From: an uncultured Coriobacteriaceae bacterium
GTDB lineage: Bacteria; Actinomycetota; Coriobacteriia; Coriobacteriales; Atopobiaceae
DNA length: 64,000 bases
Reading direction: 5' to 3'
Assembly: GCA_902777325.1 (NCBI GenBank)
Contig: CACYTH010000009.1
Span: 24,819 to 88,818, forward strand
This document shows positions 1,697 through 47,024 of the stretch, piece after piece. The notes beneath the pieces were generated by a model. That model ran no database searches and had not been told where the DNA came from. It saw only the letters and a list, made by a program, of their open reading frames with translations. The stretch's first letter is position 1. Each line of letters begins with the position of its first letter. The position numbers and the translations under genes are program-made.

Positions 1697-1776
1697 GTAT
1701 GATGCGATCCACCTTTCGTAATAACCGCCCCAGCGGCGACTCGGCTAGCGCTGGGGCGGTTATTCACAAAGAAAAG

Positions 1777-2526: not shown

Positions 2527-2616
2527 GAATCCGCCCGACAGCTGATGATGGACAGATAAAGCAACGTGCCCTCGCAGCTACCTGCGAGGGCACGTCTCAT
2601 GCTCTGTGGTATGGGG

Positions 2617-5412: not shown

Positions 5413-5453
5413 ATCAATCCTTCTGATGTGGTCGGGTTACTCCATGCGAAGGG

Positions 5454-7406: not shown

Positions 7407-7572
7407 GTTTCTCCTTACGTTATGCTGCCTCAGACTAATGTAAGTGCAGCTATCATATATGTGCAGCCGTACGATTGTACTACAGCGCCTGTTTTGCTTC
7501 AGCCCAAACAAAACACGCCGTCTAAACTGTGTTCAAACTTCATATGAGACGCTCAGAGGCCTAAATTCAGCG

Positions 7573-9187: not shown

Positions 9188-9191
9188 GTGC

Positions 9192-10301: not shown

Positions 10302-10530
10302 GGGCCTCTCTTTTCTCTCTTATATAGATATAAAGACTAATAACGATATAGAGCTCTGTTGATATGTTCAAAGACGCTTGATTCTGCTGGTAGATACCGT
10401 CCTCCACGCACTGCCGAACCATGCTTTGTCTCACCATGGCTCAACATCGCAAATCCTGTCGAAAACCTTCTCAACATTACCTTGCCACTTTTCGCAACGT
10501 TTCGAAGAAGCTTCGACATGGTTGTAGACA
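10302..10530. promoter_or_regulatory. dnaA-dnaN intergenic region, candidate oriC module with AT-rich stretch
   Basis: The AT-rich run 10311-10352 (ttttctctcttatatagatataaagactaataacgatatag) stands out against the GC-rich surroundings. A DnaA-box-like TGTTGATAT lies at 10357-10365 and TGTCGAAAA near 10454. Confidence 0.45.
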
Positions 10531-12051: not shown

Positions 12052-12073
12052 AATGCACCCATGTCGACTCGAA

Positions 12074-12138
12074 TGTTGAAAAATAGGGTATCCCATTATA
12101 TGTTGAAAACTCGACGTGCCAAGGGAGAATGTTGGCAA
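12074..12138 (+). promoter_or_regulatory. three direct DnaA-box-like 9-mers upstream of dnaA
   Basis: TGTTGAAAA at 12074-12082, TGTTGAAAA at 12101-12109, TGTTGGCAA at 12130-12138. Each matches 6-7 of 9 positions of TGTGGATAA. The same variant recurs at 10357, 13364, 13548(-), 38427 and 38475/38489. Confidence 0.4.
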
Positions 12139-12204
12139 TCTCGTCGAATGATGTCTTGCGTGGGCGATGCGGGTACAGGTATCGCCCACGCGTGGCGATT
12201 GTTG

Positions 12205-13293
12205 CTAGAGCCCCAGCAAGGCCTGGCCTTGCGGCGTGAGACGACGCTTCTGCCCACCCTGCTTGCTGAGAAGTCCCCTAGCCTCAAGTTGAGATAGCAC
12301 GCGTGACCAGGTGGACTCCGAAAGCTGATAAGAGACGACAAGATCTCGCGGTCCTACGGACTCATGTGTCCTCAGGTACTCGATAACGAGAAGCTCGCGG
12401 TCGTTGAGATCGAGCTTGGGCTGTATGGTGGACGCCGGCTCTTGCGTGGGCGCGCCGTTTTGCACCTGCGGCTGCTGCCACCCAACTTGAGTGGGACTCT
12501 GCATTTGCGCGCCCTGCTGCCATGGCTGCTGCGGCATCGGTTGGCCCCACGTCTGCGCAGGCATCTGTTGCCCCCAGGGGTTTGGGACGCCATACGGCTG
12601 TGGCTGCTGCCACCCCTGTTGCTGTTGCGGCTGCGGCTGCCAGTACTGCTGCTGCGGCTGGTATTGTCCCTGATACTGGGGCTGATACTGGGGTTGTTGG
12701 TATTGCTGCTGGTAGATGCCTGTATTTGGCATCTCCGGCGTGCTCTGGCCGTGCACCAGCGACACGGTGACCACCGTACCGTTGTGGATGTTGTCCTCGA
12801 CGGTAAGGGAACCACCCTTGTCCTGCAACCACTGCTGGGCATAGGGAAGCCCCGATCCGACGCCCCTGATGTAGCGCTTCATCTCGGCCGTAGCCGAGGT
12901 GGTTCCATACTTGAGGGCGAGGCCTTTGTCCTGAATGCCCGGGCCCTGGTCCGAGAAGCGAATGGTGTTGCCACCATCGAGGATGGAGATGGTTGGCTCT
13001 ATAAAGTACGCGTGAATGAGGTTTTCGACCACCTCGCGGATGACGGTAAAGGGGATCCTGCCACCCTGCTCAGATGCTAGTCTGGTTACGGTGGCTGTTA
13101 TCTCCTCAAGATAGGTGCGAATGTCGGAAGGCTCGACCACGACGACGCGAGGCGCTGCCGCCGCGTCGTCAAACACGGCAATACGCGCAGGATAGTGGAC
13201 TTCAAGAGAAGCCCCCGCATCTGAGTTGTCCCTTTGCCCGTTCTCGACAAACGGGTAGAACGAATCCGGCACTGCCAAACCTTTCAACATCAT
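12205..13293 (-). CDS. GHKL-type ATPase domain protein with Q/P-rich linker and C-terminal winged-helix domain
   Basis: N-box EVVENLIHAY, G1 box DQGPGI, G2 box GVGSGLPYA. Residues ~191-285 are Q/P/W/Y low complexity (YQQQYQQPQYQPQYQGQYQPQQQYWQPQPQQQQGWQQPQP...). The C-terminus LLVIEYLRTHESVGPRDLVVSYQLSESTWSRVLSQLEARGLL looks like a MarR/ArsR wHTH. Confidence 0.75.
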   Translation of the reverse strand: MMLKGLAVPDSFYPFVENGQRDNSDAGASLEVHYPARIAVFDDAAAAPRVVVVEPSDIRTYLEEITATVTRLASEQGGRIPFTVIREVVENLIHAYFIEPTISILDGGNTIRFSDQGPGIQDKGLALKYGTTSATAEMKRYIRGVGSGLPYAQQWLQDKGGSLTVEDNIHNGTVVTVSLVHGQSTPEMPNTGIYQQQYQQPQYQPQYQGQYQPQQQYWQPQPQQQQGWQQPQPYGVPNPWGQQMPAQTWGQPMPQQPWQQGAQMQSPTQVGWQQPQVQNGAPTQEPASTIQPKLDLNDRELLVIEYLRTHESVGPRDLVVSYQLSESTWSRVLSQLEARGLLSKQGGQKRRLTPQGQALLGL

Positions 13294-13305
13294 TTCACCC
13301 GGTGA

Positions 13306-13347
13306 TGAAAACTTTCAAAACTTGCATGCAAGAAATGAAAGTTTTCA
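13306..13347. promoter_or_regulatory. 42-bp composite palindrome directly upstream of the GHKL-wHTH gene
   Basis: TGAAAACTTTCA (13306-13317) and TGAAAGTTTTCA (13336-13347) are perfect inverted repeats. They flank the palindrome CTTGCATGCAAG (13321-13332), and all share one symmetry centre at 13326/13327. Confidence 0.5.
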
Positions 13348-13615
13348 ACGGTGGAAGAATACCTGTTGATAAGTGCAATCAGCAAGCATCTAGCCTTACA
13401 AACATACCACCGTTTGCAGGCATTGCACCACTACTTGCAAACAAACTTGCAGACATGGCAGCGCGTGGCGGCTAAGGAGTGACTGCCTTGGAAATCTGCG
13501 CATTTTTTGTGACTCAGGTTGGTTTCGAAAGTGAGTTTGACAGGCGCTTGTCAACAAACATACAATCGATAGGCTTGACTAGATTGACGTTACTATCTCT
13601 CAGGAGGTTGACATT

Positions 13616-13750
13616 ATGAAGCGTACGTACCAGCCCAACAAGCGCAAGCGCGCCAAGACTCATGGCTTCCGTGCCCGCATGGCCACCAAGGGCGGCCGTG
13701 ACGTCATCTCTCGTCGTCGCGCCAAGGGCCGCAAGAGGCTGACCGTCTAG
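13616..13750 (+). CDS. rpmH: 50S ribosomal protein L34
   Basis: 44 aa, too short for the ORF track: [53 protein letters not shown] at 13602-13607. Followed by rnpA. Confidence 0.95.
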
Positions 13751-13757
13751 GCTTCGT

Positions 13758-14090
13758 ATGGAGACCATCAAGTCCAAACAGGATTTTGGTCGGGTCTTCT
13801 CTGGTGGCAAACGAGCCAACCATAGGCTCGTCCGCATGACAGTTTTGAGACTTAGCGAAGGCGGCCCGGGAAGAGTCGCCTTCGCTGCGCCTAAGAGGCT
13901 GGGAAATGCGGTTTTCAGAAACCGTTGCAAGCGCGTACTGAGGGAGGCCGCCCGCGTGGCGGGCTTTCCCAAACAGGGATATGACGTCATCTTCTTTGCG
14001 ACAAAAGAGACCCATGACGAGCATCCCCAGCAGGTTGCACAGGCAATGAGTTCTCTGATTGGCAGGTTCGAAAAGCGGGACAGACGGTGA
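13758..14090 (+). CDS. rnpA: ribonuclease P protein component
   Basis: 110 aa, basic, with the [18 protein letters not shown] (RNR) motif. Canonical position after rpmH. Confidence 0.9.
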
Positions 14091-14308
14091 GGCAACCCAT
14101 GAAGCGCCTGCTCACAGCTTTGATCAGGTGGTATCAGAGATACCTTTCGCCTCTCATGGGTCCCCATTGCATCTATACGCCAACTTGCTCTGCCTATGCA
14201 CTCGAGGCCATCGAACGCTACGGAGCAATCAAGGGCACTTGGCTTGCGGTCCGACGCATTGCCCGGTGCCATCCCTTCCATGAGGGCGGGTACGATCCCG
14301 TTCCCTGA
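14087..14308 (+). CDS. yidD: membrane protein insertion efficiency factor YidD
   Basis: Motifs YQRYLSP...[16 protein letters not shown] and RCHPF. The ATGA overlaps the rnpA stop. Confidence 0.9.
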
Positions 14309-14337
14309 GCCTTGACAGGAATGTCCACGGAGGAAGC

Positions 14338-15096
14338 ATGTGGGATTGGTTTATATCGTTTCTGACTTGGGTGCTTGCCACACTGCAGAGCTTTGTCGGT
14401 GACTGGGGCCTTGCGGTCATCATTCTTACCTTTATCATTCGACTGCTCATCATGCCCCTGATGACCAAGTCCACCGCTTCGACTGCGCGCATGCAGGTGC
14501 TGCAGCCAAAGCTGCAGGAGATCCAGGAGCGCTACGCCGACGACCCCGAGCGTCAGATGGCTGAGATGCGCAAGTTCCAGGCGGAGAACAACTTCAACCC
14601 GCTTGGCGGCTGCCTGCCCATGTTCATCCAGATGCCGGTCTTCTTCGCGCTCTTTACCGTCGCACGCAACGTGCCCGAAGGCGCGAGCTTCTTTAACATC
14701 ATGCCGTCGATCTCCATGTCGGTTAGCGAGGCAGTCTCCGGGCTTGGTTTTCCCGGTGCACTGCCGTACGTCATCTTTGACGTGGGCTTTGGTGTGATGA
14801 CGCTCGCCCAGATGCTTGTCAACGTCAAGAGCGTCCCCGAGGACCAGCGCCAGCAGAACATCATGATGGGTGTCATGATGGGCGTCATGATGGTCTGGTT
14901 TGGTTGGTCTGTGCCGGCCGCCGTGCTGCTCTATTACGTCACGTCCGCAATCTGGCAGGTCGTGCAGCAGCAGCTGGTCACCAAGCGCGTGACCGAGCAG
15001 GTCAAGGCCGAGACCGAGGCCAGGCTGAAGGACCAGCCCAAGGAGATCAACGTGACGCGCCGCGAGCGTAAGCCGCGTCCGAAGAAGAAGAGTTAA
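14338..15096 (+). CDS. yidC: membrane protein insertase YidC (short Gram-positive type)
   Basis: Motifs GLAVIILTFIIRLLIMPL, LQPKLQEIQERY, NPLGGCLPMFIQMPVFFAL, and a basic C-terminal tail. Confidence 0.9.
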   Translation: MWDWFISFLTWVLATLQSFVGDWGLAVIILTFIIRLLIMPLMTKSTASTARMQVLQPKLQEIQERYADDPERQMAEMRKFQAENNFNPLGGCLPMFIQMPVFFALFTVARNVPEGASFFNIMPSISMSVSEAVSGLGFPGALPYVIFDVGFGVMTLAQMLVNVKSVPEDQRQQNIMMGVMMGVMMVWFGWSVPAAVLLYYVTSAIWQVVQQQLVTKRVTEQVKAETEARLKDQPKEINVTRRERKPRPKKKS

Positions 15097-15127
15097 CCTA
15101 GGCAAACACGCCTTAAGGAGGTACACC

Positions 15128-15709
15128 ATGGAGGACGAGCTGACGCTCACTCCTGATATCGATGAGAAGGCCGCCGATACTCCCGCGGATGAGTTTGCTT
15201 CGATTCGCGAGCACTACGAGAACGGTGTCGACCTGACGGACGACGAGATTGACCTCGTCGCTGATACGGCGATCACCTATGTTCGTGAGCTCCTGGGTTT
15301 CTTCGGGGAGAAGAAGGTTTCCATCGATGAGTATGAGGGCGACGAAGGCGAGCTCCTGCTCGATGTCTCCGGTGGAGACCTTGCCGTGCTGATTGGACGT
15401 CACGGGCGCACCCTTGATTCGCTTCAGATGATAGTTTCTTCTTTTATGAGCAATCGTCTCAAGTTCCACTATCCGATTGTCATCGACATCGAGGGATACA
15501 AGAGCCGTCGCAAGGACAAGCTGATCAACCTCGCTCATAGTGCAGCTGCTCGTGCGAAGCGCCAGCATGGCCGCGTTTCTCTTGCACCCATGAACGCCTA
15601 CGAGCGTCGTATCGTTCACCTCGCACTGCTTGATGATGTCGATGTGACTACGCATTCTGAGGGCGTTGATCCGGAGCGCCGTGTGGTCATCACATATGTG
15701 AGGTCATAA
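15128..15709 (+). CDS. jag: Jag/KhpB RNA-binding protein (KH + R3H domains)
   Basis: Motifs LIGRHGRTLDSLQ (KH) and MNAYERRIVH (R3H). AAGGAGG RBS. Position after yidC. Confidence 0.88.
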   Translation: MEDELTLTPDIDEKAADTPADEFASIREHYENGVDLTDDEIDLVADTAITYVRELLGFFGEKKVSIDEYEGDEGELLLDVSGGDLAVLIGRHGRTLDSLQMIVSSFMSNRLKFHYPIVIDIEGYKSRRKDKLINLAHSAAARAKRQHGRVSLAPMNAYERRIVHLALLDDVDVTTHSEGVDPERRVVITYVRS

Positions 15710-15738
15710 CAGAGCCGCACTGAATACAGCGACTGACG

Positions 15739-15767
15739 AAGGGGAGAGCCAATGAGGTTCTCCCCTT
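15739..15767 (+). terminator. hairpin after jag
   Basis: AAGGGGAGA-gccaatgaggt-TCTCCCCTT followed by cttgtatg. The U-tract is weak. Confidence 0.45.
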
Positions 15768-15874
15768 CTTGTATGTGAATGGGTTTGCAAGCAAGTGTCG
15801 ACCGCCTTGGGTATATGCTATCTGTTACCAGTTTTGACAGAACGCCTCGATGTGGAAAGGTTTGGCAGCAACTG

Positions 15875-16609
15875 ATGATTGATACTCCAAGCAACAGAGC
15901 ATATCTCGATGAATGCCTTGCAAGCTATGGAATCAGGGCCAACGAGAATCAGTTGACAAGACTCCTTACGCATCTCGACCTTGTAGTTGAGAAGAACAAG
16001 ATTATCAACCTTACCCGCATCATCGATCCTGCAGAGGCGATCATCCGTCATACCGTGGACTCACTTTTATTACTGCCAACCATCGAAAGGCTTGGCATCT
16101 CGACAGAGCTCCGCTTTGTAGACATAGGTACTGGTGCGGGCTTTCCTGGGATACCTTTGACAATCATGACCGAGAGCAAAGGTCTGCTCATAGATTCGGT
16201 AGGCAAGAAGGTTGCTGCCGTTAATGAGTTTTGCAAGGCATTGGGGCTCGATCATCTCGTACAAGGCAAGGCGATTAGGGCTGAGGAGCTCGCGCGGTCT
16301 TCTGCCCGTAGCTTTGATATTGTAACTGCTCGAGCAGTTGCTGAGCTCGGTGTACTGCTCGAGTACGCTTCGCCTCTTCTTAAGAAGAATGGCCATATGG
16401 TTGTCTCTAAGGCTCGTATAACAGAGGAAGAGATAGCTCATGGTGAAAAGGTCGGAGACATCGTAGGTCTGCACCTTGTTTCACGTGAAACATTTGAGCT
16501 TCCCAACGACCAAGGACACAGAGAGATACTTGCCTACGTCCATGACACCAAGAGTAGAGTCAAGCTCCCAAGGAACACGGGAATGGCTAAGCATCACCCA
16601 CTAGCGTAG
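15875..16609 (+). CDS. rsmG: 16S rRNA (guanine527-N7)-methyltransferase RsmG
   Basis: Motifs NLTRIIDPAEAIIRH..DSL, the SAM motif VDIGTGAGFPGIPL, and ARAVA. The track start is 15779. ATG 15875 fits homolog length better, so the start is uncertain. Confidence 0.88.
   Translation: MIDTPSNRAYLDECLASYGIRANENQLTRLLTHLDLVVEKNKIINLTRIIDPAEAIIRHTVDSLLLLPTIERLGISTELRFVDIGTGAGFPGIPLTIMTESKGLLIDSVGKKVAAVNEFCKALGLDHLVQGKAIRAEELARSSARSFDIVTARAVAELGVLLEYASPLLKKNGHMVVSKARITEEEIAHGEKVGDIVGLHLVSRETFELPNDQGHREILAYVHDTKSRVKLPRNTGMAKHHPLA
16477..16492. promoter_or_regulatory. parS site (inside the rsmG coding sequence)
   Basis: TGTTTCACGTGAAACA is a perfect 16-bp palindrome matching the ParB-binding consensus tGTTtCACGTGAAACa. 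Confidence 0.85.
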
Positions 16610-16610
16610 G

Positions 16611-16626
16611 TGTTTCACGTGAAACG
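16611..16626. promoter_or_regulatory. parS site
   Basis: TGTTTCACGTGAAACG, directly after the rsmG stop. Confidence 0.85.
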
Positions 16627-16719
16627 CCTATAAAGTTATGAGAAAACGATGCGTTAAATGCTGGGCAGCATTGACCGCATAGTCTCTATAAGATTGAGAA
16701 GTAGAAATAAGAGCGAGAA

Positions 16720-16735
16720 AGTTTCACGTGAAACA
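16720..16735. promoter_or_regulatory. parS site
   Basis: AGTTTCACGTGAAACA in the rsmG-parA spacer. Confidence 0.85.
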
Positions 16736-16776
16736 ACTGGGATGTGACATCCGTAAAAGTCGCATGGGATTCCCAA

Positions 16777-16792
16777 CGTTTCACGTGAAACG
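16777..16792. promoter_or_regulatory. parS site
   Basis: CGTTTCACGTGAAACG in the rsmG-parA spacer, 60 bp before the parA start. Confidence 0.85.
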
Positions 16793-16851
16793 TTGCACTA
16801 TCATCTAATACACCAAACACATGAAGCTATAACGGAGCAGTTGGAGGCAAC

Positions 16852-17652
16852 GTGGGATACCTTGACGTAAAACGGGGAAATCCTCTCAAGAAGACGAAGA
16901 TTATCGCAGTAATAAACCAAAAGGGTGGCGTTGGAAAGTCCACAACGGTTGTAAACCTGTCTGCGGCTCTTGGTGAGTCAAAAAAGAAGGTACTTGTTGT
17001 AGACCTTGATCCTCAGGGAAACACTTCGAGCGGATACGGTATCGAGAAAGAAGAGCTTGAATACGATATCTACGATGCGCTTCTCGATGATCACCCGGTA
17101 GAGGATCTGATTATCGATACATGCGAGAAGAACGTCTTTGCAATACCGGCAACAATTCAGCTTGCTGGTGCAGAGGTGGATATGGTCTCTGTCGAAGGAC
17201 GTGAGCACCTTCTTAAGAACCTGCTCTCGCCTATTAGCGAGCATTTTGACTACATATTCATCGATTGCCCGCCTTCGTTAGGTCTTCTGACTGTAAATGC
17301 GCTTGTTGCTGCTGATGAACTGCTCATCCCTATCCAGTGTGAATTCTATGCATTGGAGGGAGTGACAAAGCTCCTTGAGTCGATGCGTATGGTAAAGGGT
17401 CGCCTGAATCCGAATCTCGAGATATTTGGCGTACTTCTCACCATGTATGACGCAAGAACGACGTTGTCCAAGCAGGTTGCGGAAGAAGTTAGCTCGTATT
17501 TCGGCAAAAAGGTCTTTAAGACAATCATTCCGCGTAATGTAAAGCTATCTGAGGCGCCGAGTCATGGTCTACCAGTAACAAAGTATGCACGAATGAGTAA
17601 GGGTGCGCAGGCGTATATTAAGTTGTCAAAGGAAGTGATCCGTCGTGGCTAA
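16852..17652 (+). CDS. parA: chromosome partitioning ATPase ParA/Soj
   Basis: Deviant Walker A NQKGGVGKSTT, plus DLDPQGN and IIDCPPSLG. GTG start follows a GGAGG RBS. Confidence 0.93.
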   Translation: MGYLDVKRGNPLKKTKIIAVINQKGGVGKSTTVVNLSAALGESKKKVLVVDLDPQGNTSSGYGIEKEELEYDIYDALLDDHPVEDLIIDTCEKNVFAIPATIQLAGAEVDMVSVEGREHLLKNLLSPISEHFDYIFIDCPPSLGLLTVNALVAADELLIPIQCEFYALEGVTKLLESMRMVKGRLNPNLEIFGVLLTMYDARTTLSKQVAEEVSSYFGKKVFKTIIPRNVKLSEAPSHGLPVTKYARMSKGAQAYIKLSKEVIRRG

Positions 17653-18517
17653 ACGTTCTGGCTTGGGAAAAGGCCTCAACTCCCTCATGGGTGGCGCAGA
17701 TGCGGAAGTTGCAGCAGCGGTCACTCCAGACTCTGTACTCCCCCTGAGCGACATACGTCCAAACAAGGGGCAACCTCGCAAGAATTTTGACGAGGATGCG
17801 CTCGAGGAGCTGACGGATTCCATCAGGCAGAATGGCGTACTTCAACCGATTCTTGTCAGGAAGAAGGGACAGAAGTACGAGATCGTTGCTGGAGAGCGCA
17901 GGTATCAGGCCTCGAAGCGCGCTGGTCTTACTGAGATTCCGGTTGTCATCCGTGATATCTCGGATGAGGACGTGTTCAAGCTGGCCCTCATCGAGAACCT
18001 CCAACGTGCTGACCTTGATCCCATTGAGGAGGCAAGGGGATTCAAAACACTCCTGACAAAGTCTGGTATGACTCAGGCGGAGCTCGGTCAGGCACTCTCC
18101 AAGTCTCGTTCTGCAATTGCAAACTCGCTGCGACTGCTCGATCTGCCGGATGCCGTCCAGGAGATGATGGCAGACCGTAAGATCACTGCAGGCCATGCTC
18201 GTGCAATTCTTGCAGTTGCTGATGACGAGGCACGAATCAAGCTTGCAGAGAAGGTTGTAGAAGATGGACTGAGCGTACGTCAGACAGAAAACCTCGCTCC
18301 ATTGTTTTCTGTCACAGATAGGGAGCCTCCTGTACGAGTTGCTACTCCACAATCCTACAAACGTGCTGCTCGTCAACTTCGCCTAGTTCTTGATACCAAC
18401 GTAAAGGTCAAGCGGATGCGCAACAAGAACAAGATCGAGATTGAGTTTGCTGATGAGGAGCAACTCGCAAAGCTCGTCGAACAGCTGAGCAGGGTCGCGA
18501 TGGAGGGGAATGAGTAG
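17645..18517 (+). CDS. parB: chromosome partitioning protein ParB/Spo0J
   Basis: Motifs GLGKGLNSL, NKGQPRKNFDEDALEELTDSIRQNGVLQPILVR, GERRYQA, and the HTH QAELGQALSKSRSAIANSLRLL. Overlaps parA by 8 nt. Confidence 0.93.
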   Translation: MAKRSGLGKGLNSLMGGADAEVAAAVTPDSVLPLSDIRPNKGQPRKNFDEDALEELTDSIRQNGVLQPILVRKKGQKYEIVAGERRYQASKRAGLTEIPVVIRDISDEDVFKLALIENLQRADLDPIEEARGFKTLLTKSGMTQAELGQALSKSRSAIANSLRLLDLPDAVQEMMADRKITAGHARAILAVADDEARIKLAEKVVEDGLSVRQTENLAPLFSVTDREPPVRVATPQSYKRAARQLRLVLDTNVKVKRMRNKNKIEIEFADEEQLAKLVEQLSRVAMEGNE

Positions 18518-24037: not shown

Positions 24038-25990
24038 TTATGCGAGTTCCGTAGTCACCTCGTGCACCTGATCGGCGAGCTGCTTGTCACCGATGCGCAC
24101 GGTGCCGGCACATGCGACAAGGTGTCGCGCCAGCCACGTGCCGGCAAATTGCGGCAGACGTACGGTGACGGTCGTGTCGTCGACGCCGATGACCTCAAGG
24201 CCCTCCCAATGGAAGAGGTCGAGGTAGGTGCGGTCGTCAAAGCGCACCGTGACGAGCCTGCGGCTCTCCTCCTGTGTCTTTGGAGCTTCGGGCATCGACG
24301 CATCGAAGAGCGAGACATCGTGCATGCGATCGATGCGAAAGACCCTGTTGTCAGCACGTACGAGGTCAAAGGCATCAAGGTACCAGCTGTCGTCGCTGCG
24401 GCGCACCAGCCGGGGCACCACCCTACGGTTGCTGGCTGTGCCTCCACTCACCGGGCGATAGGAGAAGGCAAGCCCCTTGCCCTCGACGATGGCCTTTGAG
24501 CAGGTAATAAGGGTCGAGTTGTCCTCTGTAGAGCTGGGCTCCTCAAGCGTGCGCGCAATGTCGCTTGCCGAAAAGGAAGGCGAGGCATAGGAGCGCGCAA
24601 GCGTCTGCGCGAGGGGGTCGCTGTCGGGAACGCCAAGCTCGCTAAGGGCTGCGGAGAGCGCGATGGTCTCCGACCTGGTAAGACGCACGCGCCGCGCGCT
24701 CACCCCGGCACCCTCCATGAGGGCGACCTCGTCGTCATCGTCGCTGAGAATAACGGGAAGGTAGTCGATGGACTCTCCGCTTCCCATGGATACCAGCATG
24801 ATCAGATGCCGCGCGTAGTCGAAGTCGACCCCGAGCGTTTGTGCGATGTTCTCGGCAGTGATCACGTCACCCTCGCGCGTAAGGCTGCTTGCTAGTGCCA
24901 CGAGCTGGCGAGCGACGGCTACGCTACCCGTGCGACCGGCTCTTGACCTGCGCAAACGCGGTGCCTGAGCCTCGTCGGGCGATGGAAGGGTGGCATCGTA
25001 GGCATCAACCGCCGCGCTCGCCTGCACAATCTGGCTGCAAGCTAAAGCGAGGTCGTCTTTGTGGGCCGGGCTGAGACCTGCGCCGATGGACCAGGCGGCT
25101 ACGGCCTGCAGGCTGCTGTAGGGGACCTCCCAAATGGTCTGCGAGTCAACATCGAGAAGCTCGCCCTGGGTGGCCATGGCCCGCGTTGCCTCACGACCCT
25201 CGTCTCCCGTCACCCTAAAGTGCGCGAGCCCAATTGGGTCTCCCATCTGGAAGGGCAGGCGCTCGAAGTCGGTCACCGAGAAGTCCAGGGGTATCTTGTA
25301 GGAGATGGAGGCAATCTCGCGTGCCTTCGAGAAGCGGTCAAGCCGGTAGGTGCGCAGGGAGTCGGGTACGAGCGTGCCGTCCTTCTTGATGCGGCTGGCA
25401 ACAAAATAGGTCCGGTCGCGCAGGCCGAACGTACCCATGACGGCCAGGGTGCGCTGGCTGTCGGTACCGTGCGCGTCGGTGTACGAGACTGCGACCGCAT
25501 GGCGCGCGCTCATGCAACTCACAAGCGTGGAGAGAATCTTGTGCTCGGTTGGCGTAGTGGCATCTACGTGCGGTAGCGTTGACCCGCGATACATCTGCGC
25601 GATCTTTGCGAGGGCCATGCGCAGCTCGTCTCGGTAGGCAAATGACTGGTCAAAGGCCATGTCGTGGCAGAGAACGTACAGCATGCGGGCATCCTCTTGC
25701 TTGAGTCCATCGCCCTGGACGTAGGAGGTGAGCTCGTCTACCTGCCAAAGCGTGTCGCCATCAATCTGGCCCGCCTCGCGCACCTGAATGCCAAAGGTCG
25801 CCAAAAGCTCGCGATCGCGCAGGTACTGACGGTTGAAGGACTCGATGTCGAGCTCGGAGTAGAGGTCGGTCCTGATGGTCGACGAGGCAATAGGCCTGCT
25901 TGCGCCAAAGAACTTGACGGCAAGAGTAAGAACGCGGGTGGCTCTGAGATCGTCTGCCGTCACCTTGAGATGTTGGTCGGTCTTGGCCAT
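24038..25990 (-). CDS. fused tandem HTH-WYL regulator (PafB/PafC-like, single polypeptide)
   Basis: 650 aa from ATG 25990 (GGAGGG RBS). Two repeats of the WYL-type module: TYFVASRI...RTYRLDRF and SWYLDAFD...RVFRIDRM. Confidence 0.7.
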   Translation of the reverse strand: MAKTDQHLKVTADDLRATRVLTLAVKFFGASRPIASSTIRTDLYSELDIESFNRQYLRDRELLATFGIQVREAGQIDGDTLWQVDELTSYVQGDGLKQEDARMLYVLCHDMAFDQSFAYRDELRMALAKIAQMYRGSTLPHVDATTPTEHKILSTLVSCMSARHAVAVSYTDAHGTDSQRTLAVMGTFGLRDRTYFVASRIKKDGTLVPDSLRTYRLDRFSKAREIASISYKIPLDFSVTDFERLPFQMGDPIGLAHFRVTGDEGREATRAMATQGELLDVDSQTIWEVPYSSLQAVAAWSIGAGLSPAHKDDLALACSQIVQASAAVDAYDATLPSPDEAQAPRLRRSRAGRTGSVAVARQLVALASSLTREGDVITAENIAQTLGVDFDYARHLIMLVSMGSGESIDYLPVILSDDDDEVALMEGAGVSARRVRLTRSETIALSAALSELGVPDSDPLAQTLARSYASPSFSASDIARTLEEPSSTEDNSTLITCSKAIVEGKGLAFSYRPVSGGTASNRRVVPRLVRRSDDSWYLDAFDLVRADNRVFRIDRMHDVSLFDASMPEAPKTQEESRRLVTVRFDDRTYLDLFHWEGLEVIGVDDTTVTVRLPQFAGTWLARHLVACAGTVRIGDKQLADQVHEVTTELA

Positions 25991-26216
25991 GGGCCCTCCA
26001 TGGTACGCATGTTCCGTTTCTGTAAAGAATAGTACGGAATGACGGGCAAGCCAAACTCGGACAGCTCGGATGCCGCTTGCCCGCATCACGAGTCGGAGGA
26101 TGAAAACACACCTGAAAAGGATTGTCGTGTGGTGCTTGGTCTAATAGGGCCGTTGTCGGCGTATACTTAGAGCACTAATGTGCAATCACACGCAACCGCT
26201 AGGCGAGGGACGCAAC

Positions 26217-29200
26217 ATGGCGACTACGCGCGACTATACGGACTATCTCAACGACCAGGTAGACATTGCCCCGGTCAACAGCCAAGAGGAGCTGCAGGCT
26301 GCCGAGCTTATCGAGAGCCTGTTCGTCCAACATGGCCTCGAGACGCAGGTGCAGGAGTTCGACTCGCCGTCACTGGCGGGCCTGAGCTCGCGCATCTACT
26401 TGATTCTGCTGTTCATCGGTGTCCTGCTTGCAGGCTTTACCGGCACGCCTGTGTCCATCGTGGGCACCGTGATGGTCGTGGTTGCATTTGTGCTTCTTGC
26501 GCTTGCGCATAACGGCAACGACGTGCTGGCCGCCATCGGTCCGCAGGCGCGCAGCCAGAACGTCATTGGCGTTCACCGCGCCGAGGGCCCCAACGTGATC
26601 AAGGGCGCTCGCCCCATCGTGATCGTGGCGCACTACGACACGCCGCGTGAGAACTTCCTCAACGGGCGCGAGCTGGCCAAGTGGCAGCCGCTCATCAAGC
26701 GCCTGAGCTGGCCGTTCTCCATTGCGGTTCTCGTCCTCACGCTGCTGCAGCTGATTCCGTTCATCCCGGTGGTCGTCCGCCATGCGTTCTGGGTGCTGGG
26801 CGTACTGATTGCCCTTCCGCTCCTGCTTCTGGGAGCCTCCTCTATATACGAGCGCTTTGCGGCGTGCACGACGGGCGCTAACGACAACAAGGCGTCTGTT
26901 GCCGCCATGCTTGGCGTGCTTGACATGGTTCGCCCCGGTCCGGACGATGCGAAGGCGTGGGCCGCAAGCCATCCCAAGGGCGTGCGCCGCGAGCTCAAGG
27001 TCGACGAGGACGAACAAGATATATATGAGGAGTACGCCGACGAGGACTTCGAGGACGATGACTCTGACTACGAGGACGACTTCGTACGGTCGGCGGGTGC
27101 CGTTGTGGCGACCGAAGGCGACGACGAGGATCTTGCTCCCGAGGATGAGTTTGAGCCTGCGGATGAGGACCTCGCGCCTACGGACGGGTACGAGGACGAC
27201 TCCGTTTCCGAGTATGACGACTCGGACGATGAGTACGCGTTTGCCGACGAGGCCACAGATGAGCTGACGGACGAGTATGGCCTGCGCTCCCCGTCCACCG
27301 TGCGCCGTGGCGCCGACCTTCTCGCAAGCATGCAGGTGCTGCCCGAGGACTGCGAGATCGTGTACGAGGATCTCATTCCGCGCGAGGAGGCCATCGCGCG
27401 CATCGAGGAGGCCAATGCCGCCGCGGCAGGACCCTCAGGTCTCGAGCGCCTGCGTGAGACTGCCGGTGGGATTGGCGAGAATGTAAGTGGCGGCCTGGTC
27501 GTGGCTCGCGAGTTCTTTGTAAAGGTGTTCGAGGCGATCCGCGACTTCTTTGCCTCTTTGGGCGCCCGCTTTGCGCGCGAGAGGGAGGTCCCCGAGATCG
27601 AGCGCGGCGAGTCTGAGATTCCTACCGTCAGGCGCGCGACGACGGCGGACGAGGGCGAGGATGTCGCTGAGTACGCGGATGACGAGTACTACGACGACGA
27701 AGACTATGCCGACGACGAGTACCTCGACGAGGGACAGTACGACGAAGTCGACAATCAGTCGGTGGTGTCCGACGACGCTGAGGAGACGACGGATTTTTTA
27801 GCCGATCAGCCGGTGACTCAGGTGGAAGCGTTCTCACCGGCGACGAGCTTCAAGACCGTTGATTCTTACGATGAGGTCGGAGCGGCTTACGAGAGCGCTC
27901 CGGTTGCCAGCTTTGACGTGGAAGTGGGTGACGGCTTTGTCGCTCCTGAGCTAGTCGTGCCCGCTGTTGAGACGGTTGAGGATGTGGCAGCTCCCGTCGC
28001 GGAGACTCCTGTTGCGTCTGAGGAGTCTGTTATTGATGAGGCTATCGAGCAAGAGCCTCCAGTGGTGCAGCCTCTCCAGGATGCGGTTGCTGATGACCAG
28101 GAGCCCGTCTCGCTCTGGACGCCTCCTGCAGAGGACGAGTTCAGTGACGAGGACCTCATCGAGGCGGAGCAGCCTACGAGTGAGATTCCACTCGACGCGG
28201 TGCTTGCCGGTGTGGCCGATGCGGCTGCTGAGGAAGCTGTCGAGGAAGAGGTGGAGCCTGAGGCAGTATTCGAGCCCGAACCGGAACCCGTTACAGAGAT
28301 TGAGCCTGAGCTTGCCGAGGAGTTCGAGGCAATAACTGAGCCGGAGCCGGAGCCGGAGGTCGAGCCCGAACCGGAGCCGGAGCCCGAAATCGAATCCGAG
28401 CAAGAACCGATTGTGGAATCGGTAGTCGAGCCTGAGTATGAGGCTGAGCTCGTGGCCGAGTCTGAGTCGGCAGTGGAGCCCGAACCGATTGAAGCCTTCG
28501 AGGAGAACTTTGTCGATGAGCTCTCGGCAGAGTCGGTGGAAGACGAGTCACTTGATGAGTCAGTATTCGAGGCAGAGGCTGACGAGGAAGCGTTTGTCGA
28601 AGAGACTGCGGTAGACGAAGAAGAGTACGACGGGGAAGAAGGTTTCTTCAAGAGCCTGAGGAATCCCTTTGCTGACATACTTGATGCCGAGTACGAGGTC
28701 ATCGAGGAGCAGACAGAGGATGCGACGTTTGCGGCCGGCGTGCCCGTTGAGGTGGTCGACGTCCCTTCCCTTGGGGTCAATGACGATGCGCTCAAGGCGT
28801 TTGCGCCCGATTCCGCGAGCGAGCCGATGTGGAACACGTTCGCAGAGCCTGACATTGCCGAGACAGTCGAAGAGCCAGAGGTTGTCGAGCTTGCAGAAGA
28901 GCCGGCTGCTGACAGCAGCATTGACGAGGTTGATGAAACCGAGACCGATTCTCTTGCAGAGCCCGTGCCAGCTTTGGTCGAGGATGAGCCAGTCATGATG
29001 GAAGAGCCTGACGACGAAGAGGATACCGTCGTGGCGGAAGAGCCTTCCTACGACGAGATCATCGAGCCGGTCGAGCAGCCCGAAGAGGACTACGACGCAG
29101 AGTTTGCAGCAGAGGAGACGGCATCCTTCAAGGCGCTGAGCGAGGAAGATGTCGAGACCGCGCGGTTGGAGGCCGAGCAGAGAGCTGCCGAAGCGGCATC

Positions 29201-31340
29201 GGTGCTTCATCAGATGTTTGCCACTGCTCCGGAGCAGGAGCGTGTCGTGGTGAAGCCCGCAACCGACGTGCTGCATCAGATGTTTGCCACGCTTCCCGAG
29301 ATAGAGCCGCTGCCGATTCCTGAGCCCGAGCCGGAGCCGGAACCGGAGCCGGTGGTTGAGGCCGAGCCCGAGCCGGAACCCGAGGTTGTATCGGAACCCG
29401 AGCCTGAGGTCGAGCCGGAACCCGAGCAAGAGCCGGAGCCGGTTGTGGAGCCTGAACCCGAAGTGGAGCCCGAACCGGAGCAGGAACCCGAGCCTGAGTC
29501 CGAGGTTGTACCCGAGCCAGAGCTCGAACCAGTAGTGGAGCCTGAGCCGGAGCCCGAACCCGAGCCCGAGCCGGAACCCGAGCCGAAGCCGGAGCCGATT
29601 GCGGAGCCGGAGCCGGTGGCCAAGCCCGAGTCGGTGATTGCGGCCGAACCCGAGCCTGAGATCGAACCCGAATCGGAGCCCGAACCCGAGATTGAGCCCG
29701 AAGTGGAACTCGAGCCGGAACCCGAACCCGAGATTGAAACCGAACTGGAGCCGGAACCCGAGCCTGAGTCCGAGGTTGTACCCGAGCTAGAGCCCGAACC
29801 AGTAGTGGAGCCTGAGCCGGAGCCAGTGACCGAGCCGGAACCCGAGCCCGAGCCGGAGCCGGAACCCGAGCCGGAGCCGGAACCCGAGCCCGAGCCCGAG
29901 CCGGAGCCGGAGCCGGAACCCGAGCTAGAGCCGGAGCCGGAACCCGAGCCGGAGCCGGAACCCGAGCCCGAGCCGGAGCCGGAGCCGGAACCCGAGCCGG
30001 AACCCGAGCCGGAGCAGACCAAGCTCATGGAGGGAATCGTATTCTCCACCGAAACTGATGTCAGCGAAGACGAGCTTGCGGACAAGGATGTCACCGGTCT
30101 GACCGCCATCCCTGTCGAGGCCCAGGCGGACGCCGAGGATGCGCTGCCTCCTGTGCAGGAGCGCATTCCCAAGCCGCGTGCCGTCGATGACCCTGATTGG
30201 GGAAAGAGCAACTTCAAGCCGTCGGTCATGTCGGCCGGTCGCCGTGCCATGTTGCTCGACCTTCCCGACCCTGCCGTCATAGCTGTCGACCCGCTGGCGC
30301 CGACGCGCGAGGATGGGACGATGCCAGCGACGGTGGATCAGAGCACTGCAAGTCGATTTGAGATCTTGCGCAGGGTCCCCTCGCCGCTTGACGATCCGTC
30401 AGAGGAGGTAAAGGCGGCGGGTACCGGTGGATCGACTCCGCGCAGGCCTGCTCCTCAGGAGAAGGAGCCCGAGGAACAGCTCCCCAGGTACAACAAGACT
30501 AATATCGGCAGCCGCGCTCCCAAGAAGAACTCCAAGCGCAAGATGCATTTTGGTCGCAAGAAGAAGGCTGAGAGCGATCAGGTGGAGTCGATGGGCGAGT
30601 GGCTTGGCCTGAGCGATGACTACGATGCCAAGAAGGACGGACGTCAGATTGGCAGCTGGGATAACTTTGACGACAGCGACGGCAAGTGGAAGGGCGGTGC
30701 AACCTTGCGAGCTGGTCTGCGCGACTACGACGAGTACGACTCCGATCAGGTGACGACTGCTTTGCCTAACTTTGACTCCCTCGACCTTATGCCGGGTGAG
30801 GAGCAGACAATGCAAGAGCAGCAGGTCGACGAGCAGGATGTCGAGACTTACGAGAACGAGATAGGCGACGACGTGCTGCATCTCGGCGACGACGACATCA
30901 TTGCGCACGACATCTGGTTTGTCGGCGTAGGCGCCTCTGCGCGCGACCATGCTGGCGTCAAGGCGTTCCTCGACGAGCATCGCAGGGACATCCGCGGTGC
31001 CTTCCTGATCAACCTTGATAGCGTTGGCGCGGGCAACCTGACCCTGCTCACCGGCGAGGGCACTGGCGCAAAGCGCCGCTCCGACCGCCGCTTGGGCCGC
31101 ATGCTCACCAACATTGCCGACGCCCTGCATATCGATCTTGGTCGCGCCGACTATAGCTGGGACGAGACGGACGCAACGCCGGCGATGCAGCGCTCGGTGC
31201 GCGTAAGCACGCTCATGGGCATGTCCAACGACGGGGTTGCCGCGCATTCCCACACGGCGGACGATGAGCCGGAGTACCTCAACGACAAGCAGATCGCCAA
31301 CGTTGCGGACATCATTGCGGAGCTGATCAGGCGCTCGTAG
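26217..31340 (+). CDS. giant membrane protein with split M28-peptidase-like motifs and ~1300-aa acidic low-complexity insert
   Basis: 1707 aa from ATG 26217. N-terminal motifs NVIGVH...[10 protein letters not shown] and [13 protein letters not shown] are separated by hydrophobic helices. C-terminal motifs [24 protein letters not shown] and [12 protein letters not shown]. The D/E/P/A/V-rich middle includes long (EP)n runs. Confidence 0.8.
29318..30015 (+). repeat. coding hexanucleotide tandem repeat (GAGCCN)n encoding (EP)n
   Basis: ~700 bp of gagcccgagccggagccggaacccgag... in frame with the giant ORF. A higher-order ~270-bp duplication is present: 29489-29553 nearly equals 29759-29823. A shorter run lies at ~28255-28400. 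Confidence 0.9.
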
Positions 31341-32972: not shown

Positions 32973-33048
32973 GGGCCGTTAGCTCAGCTGGCAGAGCAGG
33001 GGACTTTTAATCCCAAGGTCTAGGGTTCGAAACCCTAACGGCCCACCA
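32973..33048 (+). tRNA. tRNA-Lys (anticodon TTT)
   Basis: Acceptor gggccgt/acggccc, anticodon loop CTTTTAA, T-arm tagggTTCGAAAcccta, encoded CCA. Confidence 0.95.
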
Positions 33049-33257
33049 AGAGAGATCGGCGCCCCGGCGACGGGGCGCTTTCCGTTGCCGTGGGACTCCC
33101 GCGGTTTCGAACCCGCGAGGGCGCGACATGCCGGTGGCATGTCGCGGGGTGAGCGCAGCGAACCCCACGAGCGCCGCCCCGGGCGGCGCGGCGAAACCCT
33201 AACGGCCCACCAAGAGAGATCGGCGCCCCGGCGACGGGGCGCTTTCCGTTGCCGTGG
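33028..33257 (+). repeat. perfect 66-bp direct repeat (33028-33093 and 33192-33257) bracketing the hairpin element
   Basis: cgaaaccctaacggcccaccaagagagatcggcgccccggcgacggggcgctttccgttgccgtgg occurs twice with no mismatch. Copy 1 is the genuine tRNA-Lys 3' part plus its terminator hairpin. Confidence 0.95.
33094..33191 (+). repeat. tRNA-linked hairpin-rich element, Lys-locus copy (98 nt)
   Basis: gactcc-CGCGGtttcgaacCCGCG-aggGCGCGACATGCCggtGGCATGTCGC-GGGGtgagcgcagcgaaCCCC-acga-GCGCCGCCccgGGCGGCGC-gg. That is four consecutive hairpins. Homologous to 1480-1576 and 46802-46889. Confidence 0.8.
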
Positions 33258-45050: not shown

Positions 45051-45929
45051 TTATGCGAGCAGCGCGGCAACCTTGCCCAGCTCGGACTCGAAGCTCACGC
45101 CACGCACCTCAAAGTCGGGCTGGAGGCGCGTGATGCGCATGGCGTCGCGCACGAAGGAGCCGGCGAACTCCACGGCGTCGTGCATCGAGCGGCCTGCCAT
45201 GATGGCAGCCAGAAGCGAGCTGGCATACAGGTCGCCAGTGCCATGGAGCATGTAGGGCAGAAGCTCGCTGGTCTGCTCCTCAAATGCCAGGTCGGCCCCC
45301 ACGACGTAGTTGCGGATGATCTTCTCGCCCTCATGCACCACGCCCTTGAGCACGACGGTCTTCGCGCCCTGCTCGAGCAGCGCATCGGTGACGCGGCGCA
45401 CGTAGGCCTCGTCCACGTCCTGCCCCTCGTAGGCGATGCCCGTGAGGATGGAGGCCTCGGTGAGGTTGGGGGTGAGGACGTCGGCACCGTTGACCAGCTC
45501 GCCCATGGCCTCGCAGAGCTCGTCGGTGTAGGTCTGGTACTTCTGGCCGCCGTCGCCCATCACGGGATCGACGATGCGAAGCGCCTTGGGATGCTCCCGA
45601 TACAGGCGCTTGATGGCACCTACCTGCTCGGCTGCGCCGAGAAAGCCGGAGTAGATGGCATCGAGCTCGATGCCCTCGGCGACCCAGGCATCTAGGTACG
45701 GTGCGAGCATGTCGGTGGTGTCGTGCATGTGAAAGACAGGGAAGCGCGTGTGTGCCGAGAACAGCGAGGTGGGAACGGGGCAGACGTCGCAGCCTGCGGC
45801 GGAGAGAACGGGGATTGCCACGCCGAGCGAGCACTTGCCGTAGCCGCAGAGGTCGTGAACGGCAGCGATGCGCGGGATGTAGGCGTCCTTGCGCTGATAG
45901 AGATACAGGTCCTTGGCATAGGTGGTCAT
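45051..45929 (-). CDS. pdxK: pyridoxal/pyridoxamine kinase family protein
   Basis: 292 aa from ATG 45929 (AAGGGAG RBS). Ribokinase-like motifs IAAVHDLCGYGKCSL, DAIYSGFLG, VDPVMGDGG, LTPNLTEA and GTGDLYAS. Confidence 0.7.
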   Translation of the reverse strand: MTTYAKDLYLYQRKDAYIPRIAAVHDLCGYGKCSLGVAIPVLSAAGCDVCPVPTSLFSAHTRFPVFHMHDTTDMLAPYLDAWVAEGIELDAIYSGFLGAAEQVGAIKRLYREHPKALRIVDPVMGDGGQKYQTYTDELCEAMGELVNGADVLTPNLTEASILTGIAYEGQDVDEAYVRRVTDALLEQGAKTVVLKGVVHEGEKIIRNYVVGADLAFEEQTSELLPYMLHGTGDLYASSLLAAIMAGRSMHDAVEFAGSFVRDAMRITRLQPDFEVRGVSFESELGKVAALLA

Positions 45930-46105
45930 GTCTGACTCCCTTCTTGTCGTGCAGGGATGGCGGACCCCTGCTGCGCATGATTCTAGACTGCCCGTAGTGC
46001 AATATGCGATATGAAACAAAACGGAAATACAGAATATATAGCTAGGTTCCTGCGAGTTAATCAAATGGTAATAAAGTGCGTTAGCAGCCAAGAGCATCGT
46101 TCAAC

Positions 46106-46782: not shown

Positions 46783-46801
46783 GGCGGAGGAGGAGGGATT
46801 C
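46783..46801 (-). pseudogene. 19-nt duplicate of the tRNA-Ser 3' end (T-loop GAATC through discriminator)
   Basis: ggcggaggaggagggattc at 46783-46801 is identical to 46938-46956 inside tRNA-Ser. Identity stops exactly in the T-loop. Confidence 0.85.
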
Positions 46802-46889
46802 CCGCGTTGCCTTGCGGCAACGCTCTCAGGCCTCGCTGCGCTCGGCCCGTAGCGCTTTCGCGCTACGACCTTGCGGTTCGATGACCACC
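46802..46889 (-). repeat. tRNA-linked hairpin-rich element, Ser-locus copy (88 nt, divergent)
   Basis: In tRNA orientation: ggtggtcatcgaaccgcaaggtc-GTAGCGCgaaaGCGCTAC-gGGCCgagcgcagcgagGCCt-gaGAGCGTTGCCgcaaGGCAACGC-gg. It has the same hairpin order and the same GAGCGCAGCGA loop as the Ala and Lys copies, with different stem sequences and GNRA loops. Confidence 0.7.
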
Positions 46890-46936
46890 AGGAACTCTTC
46901 TTGGTCAGTGACCTGCACTGACCCGTTATTCAATTA

Positions 46937-47024
46937 TGGCGGAGGAGGAGGGATTCGAACCCTCGAGACCTTTCGGCCCGGCGGTTTTCAAGACCGCTGC
47001 ATTCAACCACTCTGCCACCCCTCC
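46937..47024 (-). tRNA. tRNA-Ser (anticodon TGA)
   Basis: Reverse complement is ggaggggtggcagagtggttgaatgcagcggtCTTGAAAaccgc-cgggccgaaaggtctc (long variable arm)-gagggTTCGAATccctc-ctcctccgcca. Confidence 0.93.

Follow-up and report, generated by a model that had tools for sequence, protein, structure and literature searches.

A gene-less element of about 160 nt that occupies the T-loop of tRNA genes was found in a 64,000-nt stretch of DNA (the window) from an uncultured Coriobacteriaceae bacterium, where copies follow the tRNA-Lys, tRNA-Ala and tRNA-Ser genes. The element is real and is polymorphic among strains. With about even confidence, we read it as a non-autonomous, site-specific mobile cassette that enters the tRNA T-loop and is mobilized in trans. 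The element would then belong to the known class of site-specific non-autonomous integrating elements, as a form undescribed in the sources searched. A unit occupies the T-loop (between TTC and GA) of the tRNA gene that ends a cluster. The tRNA end of the cassette completes the gene, and the earlier 3′ end is displaced downstream, where it forms a dead fragment.

The copy behind the tRNA-Lys gene consists of the following parts.

32973–33048, plus strand: tRNA-Lys(TTT) gene (ARAGORN; 65.7 bits with the Rfam tRNA model)
33028–33093, plus strand: U1, first copy of a 66-nt block (direct repeat, 100% identity)
33094–33191, plus strand: M, the 98-nt module (folds; 114 bits with the covariance model; covariation)
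33103–33114, plus strand: arm GGTTTCGAACCC, the reverse complement of the tRNA-Lys T-loop, which forms an inverted repeat with 33023–33034
33112–33121, plus strand: P2 (CCC-GCGA-GGG), part of the module
33122–33146, plus strand: h2, part of the module
33146–33166, plus strand: h3 with an inner GC-GCA-GC, part of the module
33171–33189, plus strand: h4, part of the module, which ends with CGCGG
33103–33198, plus strand: five-way junction (minimum free energy (MFE) fold, RNAalifold consensus and covariation)
33192–33257, plus strand: U2, second copy of the 66-nt block (direct repeat, 100% identity)

U1 extends from T-loop residues C56/G57 through CCA (33028–33048) into a trailer that contains a GC-rich hairpin (33059–33078) and a TTT sequence. 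U2 is a tRNA 3′ fragment that lacks the 5′ half of the gene and is followed by an identical hairpin trailer. A repeat search reported 33028–33093 and 33192–33257 as the sole direct repeat at this site (66 nt, 100% identity), which confirms the perfect 66-bp re-duplication of the tRNA-Lys 3′ end and trailer described in a first-pass annotation of the window. The terminator that was placed at the block end in that annotation is retained in part. The GC-rich hairpin and the TTT sequence are present, but a simple scan did not call the hairpin a terminator because of its weak T-tract. Promoter-like sites were not detected in the Lys locus. ARAGORN and Rfam detected no hidden tRNA or tRNA-like gene on the opposite strand, where the 5′ strand of the T-stem is also missing, and such a gene was ruled out.

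Two further full copies and one truncated copy are located on the minus strand of the window.

1621–1696, minus strand: tRNA-Ala(TGC) gene, the last gene of an Ile-Ala pair, whose 3′ part from G57 (1640) starts the first unit
1480–1576, minus strand: module behind tRNA-Ala (125 bits with the covariance model)
1417–1479, minus strand: second tRNA-Ala 3′ fragment and trailer, followed by a truncated second module
~1377–1416, minus strand: truncated second module, from the arm through the h2 loop (first 40 nt of the insert; weak covariance-model match at 1283–1426)
46937–47024, minus strand: tRNA-Ser(TGA) gene (tRNA call)
46802–46894, minus strand: module behind tRNA-Ser, of a divergent subfamily (93 bits with the covariance model)
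46783–46801, minus strand: displaced 19-nt tRNA-Ser 3′ fragment GAATCCCTCCTCCTCCGCC, followed by a different terminator-like hairpin

Both full inserts exhibit the orientation relative to the tRNA and the CGCGG-to-GA junction that had been noted for them in the first-pass annotation, which overlooked the second, truncated copy behind tRNA-Ala. The covariance model recovered the three full copies (93–125 bits) and the truncated copy behind the second tRNA-Ala fragment, and no further full copy in the window. The defining pattern occurs three times in the window, versus 0.00 times expected from shuffles. The arm of the tRNA-Ala module (GGGCTCGAACC) is the complement of the tRNA-Ala T-loop (GGTTCGAGCCC). 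In the tRNA-Ser module of the window, the left arm lacks 9 nt, a deletion specific to this strain, and other strains contain the full arm (cacggagggatTCGAACC). Two orthologous loci (L132 and L206) contain an identical 19-nt tRNA-Ser fragment but divergent trailers, and h2 of the orthologous Ser site shows a compensatory T-A to C-G change. The tRNA-Ile(GAT)–tRNA-Ala(TGC) pair (1621–1853, minus strand) has no flanking 16S or 23S rRNA gene, and the same pair with a module after tRNA-Ala is also present in L207 and L213.

Polymorphism of the element was analysed using contigs of conspecific strains that encode exactly identical flanking proteins. Five alleles of the tRNA-Lys T-loop, a hyper-variable hot spot, are found among strains with 100% identical PepS proteins. 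The L146 allele is exactly 164 nt shorter than that of the window, L144 and others and contains a single 66-nt block followed by AATCGGAGCG. L145 carries a longer module variant with a different trailer, which is also duplicated. In L150, a module of another subfamily is broken off after h3 by at least 500 nt of unrelated, AT-richer DNA. L151 has an unrelated island in place of the tRNA sequence that starts at TTCGA, and this island contains its own tRNA 3′ end. A BLAST search with the L150, L145 and L151 flanks against all collected sequences gave no match. At the tRNA-Ser locus, strains contain one, two or at least three identical tandem 164-nt units. The tRNA-Ala allele of L246 is 159 nt shorter and retains only the tRNA, the trailer and a module truncated in the h2 loop. 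Alleles that lack a unit therefore exist at two loci (L146, −164 nt; L246, −159 nt), and both could be explained by homologous deletion between repeats.

The first-pass annotation had left the number of copies and the list of occupied tRNAs to be established. Degenerate patterns were used to scan genomes and metagenomes once each, and the matches were filtered by tRNA adjacency and the covariance model. This census yielded 28 distinct copies, which follow tRNAs of 13 isoacceptor types (Lys TTT and CTT; Ala TGC and CGC; Ser TGA, GCT and CGA; Arg TCT and ACG; Glu; Thr; Gly TCC; and Phe). All true copies come from Coriobacteriia metagenome-assembled genomes (MAGs) or metagenome contigs of rumen or gut origin. 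Every copy is co-directional with its tRNA and located behind the final tRNA of a cluster, and the junction from CGCGG to T-loop base 56/57 is exact in 28/28 copies. Copies in one genome, such as six on the Ga0256405 contigs, share an h3/h4 subfamily, which indicates spread or homogenization inside genomes. A longer module subfamily of ~125–140 nt (L145, 4450–4575; L167, 1240–1370, minus strand) contains an extra conserved segment, GGACCCGAGCGCCC.CGCGAGGGTCTCGTA, between h2 and h3.

No mobility gene accompanies the copies in the regions searched. Clustering of open reading frames (ORFs) over 25 loci returned only syntenic housekeeping genes, and neither an integrase nor any other recombinase recurs beside the copies. 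Among the genes of the window, no recombinase or reverse-transcriptase Pfam domain was detected, in agreement with the first-pass view that the window contains no recombinase, and no reverse transcriptase was seen in the collected loci. The module is absent from 2.9 million IMG/VR viral contigs, GenBank phages and PLSDB plasmids. Among the 4227 models of Rfam 15, only tRNA models pass, even at E ≤ 10; the best non-tRNA match reaches 20.5 bits against a threshold of 52.5 bits, and known ribozymes and tRNA-adjacent RNAs were rejected on this basis. Literature searches found no description of such an element. The module thus matches no described repeat, RNA family or mobile element; it had likewise not been recognized as a repeat or RNA family from the window alone.

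Several groups of pattern matches were discarded during the census. A loose pattern (GAGCGCAGCGAN7GAGCG) had at least 120 matches in viral contigs, all of which were chance matches as judged by BLAST against the three window copies. One viral-contig match (L069) is coding-like and has no tRNA. Genome-scan matches in assorted soil bacteria and Deinococcus gave no covariance-model match, and the Cryptobacterium match (L126) is not a family member. Approximately two-thirds of the 74 stretches from the metagenome scan are chance matches in GC-rich soil DNA, with neither a tRNA nor the fold. In seven Deinococcaceae sequences (L123, L127, L128, L131, L134, L137 and L142), a 28-nt pattern matches a conserved site ~1.5 kb from tRNA-Ala(GGC)–tRNA-Met; these sites have no covariance-model match, are unrelated to the element and probably represent a conserved coding segment.

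The 98-nt insert of the tRNA-Lys locus, when folded alone, forms four hairpins (−59.3 kcal/mol, z = −3.1, with 0/200 shuffles as good), which reproduces the four consecutive hairpins drawn in the first-pass annotation. The comparative fold departs from that drawing at the first hairpin, which is replaced by a long-range closing helix and a 3-bp GNRA mini-hairpin. The same five-way junction is obtained from the single-sequence MFE fold of almost every copy and from the RNAalifold consensus. In the closing helix P1, the arm, GGxxTC(G), pairs with the beginning of the tRNA fragment that follows, (C)GAxxCC, and two unpaired bases follow. At the Lys locus, P1 is formed by 33103–33109 (GGTTTCG) and 33192–33198 (CGAAACC) and encloses P2, h2, h3 and h4. 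P2 is the 3-bp hairpin, with a GNRA loop in 25/26 copies. The h2 helix has 9–11 bp. The h3 helix contains a tandem G·A-type internal loop and an inner GC-GNA-GC, and h4 has 8 bp with a GNA or GNRA loop and is followed by GG. The helices are connected by short linkers of fixed length.

Comparison of the copies reveals strong covariation, whereas the first-pass annotation had regarded copies without covariation and without a transcript as grounds for abandoning its proposal. Pairing is observed in 97.3% of cells versus 37–41% in slid controls, and 108 cells contain changes on both sides versus 3–16 in these controls. Compensatory changes are found in 14/30 pairs, and P1 covaries with T-loop bases 59/60. 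Two subfamilies are distinguished by three linked changes, namely an additional C behind GAACC, G for T in P2, and an additional C ahead of GA. Together, these changes preserve P1, the 2-nt spacer and P2 in 26/26 copies. G·U cells are ~12 times rarer in the modules (4/771) than in the tRNA stems of the same loci (29/476; p = 3e-9). This near-absence indicates that the helices are kept strictly Watson–Crick, which hints at DNA hairpins or copy-regenerated helices more than at typical RNA genes. The tRNA-sense strand folds better than its complement in 25/28 copies using RNA parameters and in 27/28 copies using DNA parameters.

One unit comprises four parts, namely the tRNA bases from G57 to CCA, a ~45-nt trailer with a terminator-like hairpin, the arm and the conserved module. 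The unit is ~160 nt long (164 nt in the Lys and Ser units) and has no ORF. The module consists of the GNRA mini-hairpin and three hairpins and ends with CGCGG. In every module, the arm holds the reverse complement of the T-loop of the preceding tRNA, and over its full length the arm of a unit is the reverse complement of the T-loop and the T-stem 3′ strand of its tRNA. The arm is GGTTTCGAACC for Lys, GGGCTCGAACC for Ala-TGC and GGATTCGAACC for most others, with GGAGTC, GGAATC, GGGGTTC and GGTCTC in the remainder. The T-loop and its inverted counterpart are separated by a fixed distance of 87–96 nt, with the trailer hairpin at the centre. The inverted T-loop of the arm, the closure of the five-way junction by the arm and the tRNA fragment, and the inclusion of the trailer hairpin in the unit were all overlooked in the first-pass annotation. 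In L194 (8090–8185), the tRNA-Lys 3′ end and trailer are mirrored about the terminator loop in a nearly perfect 90-nt palindrome, and the arm is the full inverted tRNA 3′ end (TGGTGGGCCGTTAGGGTCTC).

The composition of the unit is defined by trailers, arrays and arms. The proximal trailer is unrelated to the distal trailer in at least nine loci. At L194, the tRNA-Lys locus of another species, the distal, displaced trailer is orthologous to the U1 trailer of the window, and the proximal trailer is foreign. In L167, three different units with separate trailers form an array, behind which remnants are located. In both copies that are informative because their flanking tRNA ends differ (L210 and L184), the arm fits the upstream end and not the downstream end. 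Together, these observations identify the tRNA 3′ end, trailer, arm and module as a co-inherited unit that enters between TTC and GA. The L210 copy (34–300) is chimeric. An intact tRNA-Thr and a Thr-type arm are combined with a tRNA-Glu 3′ end as the fragment after the module, which suggests recombination between modules at different tRNA loci or a non-cognate insertion.

The two blocks of a locus are identical or nearly identical in seven cases (66 nt in the window Lys copy, 62 nt in L145, and L157-Lys(CTT), L185, L121, L140 and L219). A partial arm or module often follows the distal block (window Ala, L133, L183, L184, L172 and L213). The tRNA-Ala allele pair shows that a structure of this type consists of an older truncated unit with a full unit upstream of it, and we tentatively read the clean duplications in the same way. 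In the clean duplications, the 5′ boundary of the module varies by 0–17 nt, and the repeated block, 60–67 nt in length, ends 9–15 nt past the hairpin in 5/7 cases. These boundaries also fit an RNA-templated or target-duplicating insertion.

In the proposed mechanism, repeated T-loop entry would generate tandem arrays, recombination between direct repeats would remove units, and older distal units would become truncated; these steps are inferred from the arrays, alleles and remnants. On the tRNA-sense strand, the arm is predicted to pair across the junction of the module and the tRNA fragment. This pairing would rebuild a T-arm-like duplex with two or three unpaired bases opposite the crossover and close the five-way junction. 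The folded junction may act as both recognition and recombination site, with a putative enzyme that is encoded elsewhere in the genome and acts in trans. Integron attC and the CTX-phage attP(+) hairpin are recombination sites of this kind, formed by a folded single strand, and by analogy the folded sense single strand of the element would be the recombination site. The likeness to attC and attP(+) extends to an intrastrand duplex with unpaired crossover bases, to cassette-like arrays at one entry site and to an enzyme that would be encoded elsewhere. The structure is conserved, the sequence is variable and folding is strand-specific in the element, as the covariation and the more stable sense strand demonstrate. 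The analogy is limited in that neither an IntI nor a XerCD link is shown and the element has a five-way junction instead of one imperfect hairpin, with entry into a tRNA T-loop. R″/R′ and L″/L′ boxes (RYYYAAC ... GTTRRRY) were absent from the element sequences, and no IntI was found in the window.

Islands and prophages that target tRNA genes with tyrosine integrases reportedly include a T-loop sublocation class, which Williams is said to have described in 2002. They resemble the element in the T-loop crossover, the replacement tRNA 3′ end, the displaced 3′ fragment present as a direct repeat and tandem accretion. The repeat of the element starts in the T-loop and reaches or passes the tRNA 3′ end, and its proximal copy completes the gene. 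The element differs in that it has no integrase or any other gene, spans ~160 nt instead of kilobases, uses 13 tRNA types with one element family and contains a structured module conserved by covariation. No tyrosine or serine recombinase was found in or beside the unit among the window genes and collected loci. Cis-mobilizable elements (CIMEs) are reportedly defined, in work on Streptococcus ICESt1/3, as att-flanked elements without recombination genes. The element shares with CIMEs the attL/attR-like flanking direct repeats, the lack of its own recombinase and a presumed mobilization in trans. Unlike a CIME, it has no cognate prophage or integrative and conjugative element (ICE) with the same arms in the searched collections, carries a hairpin trailer and a folded module as cargo, and is two orders of magnitude smaller.

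Small mobile repeats are a further point of comparison. Miniature inverted-repeat transposable elements (MITEs), REPINs and PATEs, the last being non-autonomous IS200/IS605 derivatives, are likewise small, gene-less, multicopy, hairpin-rich and intergenic, with subfamilies within genomes. The element is distinguished from them by its strict T-loop specificity and by the 19–105 nt of target that it carries and duplicates. Terminal inverted repeats with a short, fixed target-site duplication, as in MITEs, were not found, and the sole inverted repeat is that of the arm and the T-loop. The element inserts after GGTTC and has hairpins, as PATEs do, yet it always carries a duplicated tRNA end, and no TnpA was seen. 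The orientation of the element relative to replication is mixed in the window, with only three copies to judge from, all near the origin. Among the three readings offered in the first-pass annotation, the miniature non-autonomous integrative element is the best supported, given the polymorphism, the arrays, the 13 tRNA types, the T-loop junction, the supplied tRNA 3′ end and the lack of a recombinase in the window. The CIME likeness attached to that reading is limited by the lack of a cognate element in the collections searched (IMG/VR, GenBank phages and PLSDB).

The cassette reading is opposed by several observations. It names no enzyme, and neither an excised circle nor a directly observed empty-site junction accompanies it. 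A double-stranded circle of 160 nt is implausibly small, so a single-stranded or RNA intermediate has to be assumed. The shorter alleles could all come from ordinary homologous recombination between direct repeats and thus prove instability but not site-specific excision. The duplicated trailers of the window Lys copy and L145 are of the native type of the lineage and 100% identical (66 and 62 nt, respectively), which favours an insertion with target duplication, or the capture of the downstream trailer, over the simple import of a foreign unit; the cassette account then needs tandem integration followed by distal truncation. The acquisition of a new tRNA end, and thus a change of target, is unexplained by the cassette model. 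Functional RNAs, too, typically contain GNRA loops and tight multi-helix junctions. Finally, part of the apparent sequence conservation was imposed by the search patterns (TCGAACC, GAGCG, GCC/GGC and CGCGG).

A bolder form of the cassette reading, which is tentative and rather doubtful, describes the copies as an integron-like system without genes. Each cassette would be reduced to a spare tRNA 3′ end, to a terminator and to a recombination site that folds on itself, and it would enter the T-loop through a folded single-stranded DNA or an RNA-derived intermediate with a host enzyme or another enzyme supplied in trans.

Among the alternatives to a cassette, a structured RNA survives best, although it is fairly unlikely. 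The module and the tRNA 3′ fragment would be transcribed, by read-through from the tRNA or on their own, for example as a trailer RNA whose tRNA-like 3′ end is a feature of a molecule that binds a processing or modification factor, and the duplications would be by-products of the spread of the RNA gene. This explanation accommodates the better folding of the sense strand with RNA parameters, the GNRA loops of P2, the tandem G·A-type loop of h3, the short fixed linkers, the constant co-direction with the tRNA and the presence of a hairpin after the unit. The old tRNA-Ser site, at which the module and the 19-nt fragment are conserved in three species while the trailers drift, is also in its favour. 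However, an RNA gene is difficult to reconcile with the scarcity of G·U pairs and with the terminator-like hairpin and T-run that lie directly upstream of the module in most copies. The lack of a promoter-like site in the Lys locus and of an Rfam match at E ≤ 10 also weighs against it, and variation of presence and copy number between strains is unusual for a housekeeping RNA. The RNA module parked behind tRNA genes that was listed in the first-pass annotation has structural support, including the GNRA and GNA loops. ROOL, GOLLD, Drum and other tRNA-adjacent Rfam RNAs are also structured non-coding elements beside tRNA genes; the element is much smaller than these, is polymorphic and has no Rfam 15 match.

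RNA-mediated spread, in the manner of short interspersed elements (SINEs) or by target priming, is distinctly unlikely. In this scheme, a transcript from the module to the terminator would be reverse-transcribed and joined at the T-loop through GAxxCC homology, so that the stretch from the T-loop to the terminator becomes duplicated. The exact CGCGG-to-GA 3′ junction combined with a variable module 5′ boundary fits such a process. The end of the clean-duplication block 9–15 nt after the hairpin corresponds to approximately the point of RNA release at an intrinsic terminator, and the duplication of native-type trailers in the window Lys copy and L145 also fits. Retargeting, which the cassette reading leaves aside, is easily explained by template switching at the conserved T-loop. 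Loci whose proximal and distal trailers are unrelated are not accounted for by this scheme, nor is the tRNA-Ala allele pair, in which the repeat includes 40 nt of the module. The strict Watson–Crick helices speak against an RNA-selected fold, and neither the window nor the collected loci contain a reverse transcriptase.

Three related ideas were rejected. A simple target-site duplication fits the Lys copy but fails for the loci with unrelated trailers and for the tRNA-Ala allele pair. A primer-binding site would need complementarity that reaches CCA, as observed only in L194, and that of the other copies stops at the T-stem. An omega/reRNA-like RNA that guides a TnpB-type nuclease through the 20-nt tRNA fragment would make the regenerated tRNA a perfect target.

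A passive scar or true CIME, in which attL and attR were fused after the loss of a full-size prophage or ICE at the tRNA T-loop and any mobilization depends on the integrase of that lost element, is very unlikely, and the first-pass suggestion of scars left by related islands is disfavoured with it. Crossover at this position with regeneration of the tRNA 3′ end is a classic tRNA-integrase footprint, an unrelated island uses the same T-loop in L151, and the L150 module runs after h3 into at least 500 nt of unrelated DNA; against this, one homogeneous module family serves 13 tRNAs within single genomes, and compensatory changes maintain its helices, which is not expected of protein-binding arm sites. 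The first-pass annotation had also conceded that the module might prove to be the attL or attR arm of a prophage or ICE in relatives, and the lack of a match in IMG/VR, GenBank phages and PLSDB and of an integrase beside the collected copies speaks against this.

If mobile as proposed, the element would be the smallest site-specific integrating element known to us, reduced to parts for target repair and recognition. It provides a minimal system for the recognition of the T-loop site by recombination and, with an arm that covaries with its target, for changes in tRNA specificity. Many tRNA 3′ ends and terminators in these Coriobacteriia would be element-borne and often replaced, which calls for caution in annotation. 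In the gene-less integron-like form, most terminal tRNA genes in the lineage would over time have their 3′ ends and terminators overwritten by cassettes. Several contigs end inside the element (L150–L152 and L232), and units thus appear to fragment metagenome assemblies at tRNA loci. A compact, programmable site that targets the T-loop could serve genome engineering.

The window covers the chromosomal replication-origin region of a genome with ~62% GC. The gyrA, gyrB, recF, dnaN and dnaA genes are located on the minus strand (10531–13500 and surroundings, 2566–18500), and rpmH, rnpA, yidD, yidC, jag, gidB, parA and parB are present beyond them. The cumulative GC skew climbs across the window. 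Rumen metagenome contigs encode proteins identical to those of the window, and the related genomes are rumen "Coriobacteriaceae" MAGs. A gene at 26178–31340 (plus strand) encodes an extremely acidic, low-complexity protein of 1720 residues with long (E/P)n repeats and no Pfam match, whose length ranges from 1681 to 1820 residues among strains with an identical neighbouring PepS. It is adjoined by the gene for a 683-residue WYL-domain protein (24038–26089, minus strand), a possible nucleic-acid-sensing regulator. Near the tRNA-Ser locus, a gene for a 348-residue protein without a Pfam match (45051–46097, minus strand) lies downstream of the LemA and pyridoxal-kinase genes. In some strains (L233 and L237 were compared), this gene is swapped for three small ORFs of 107, 62 and 91 residues, and its position constitutes a second variable spot in that region.

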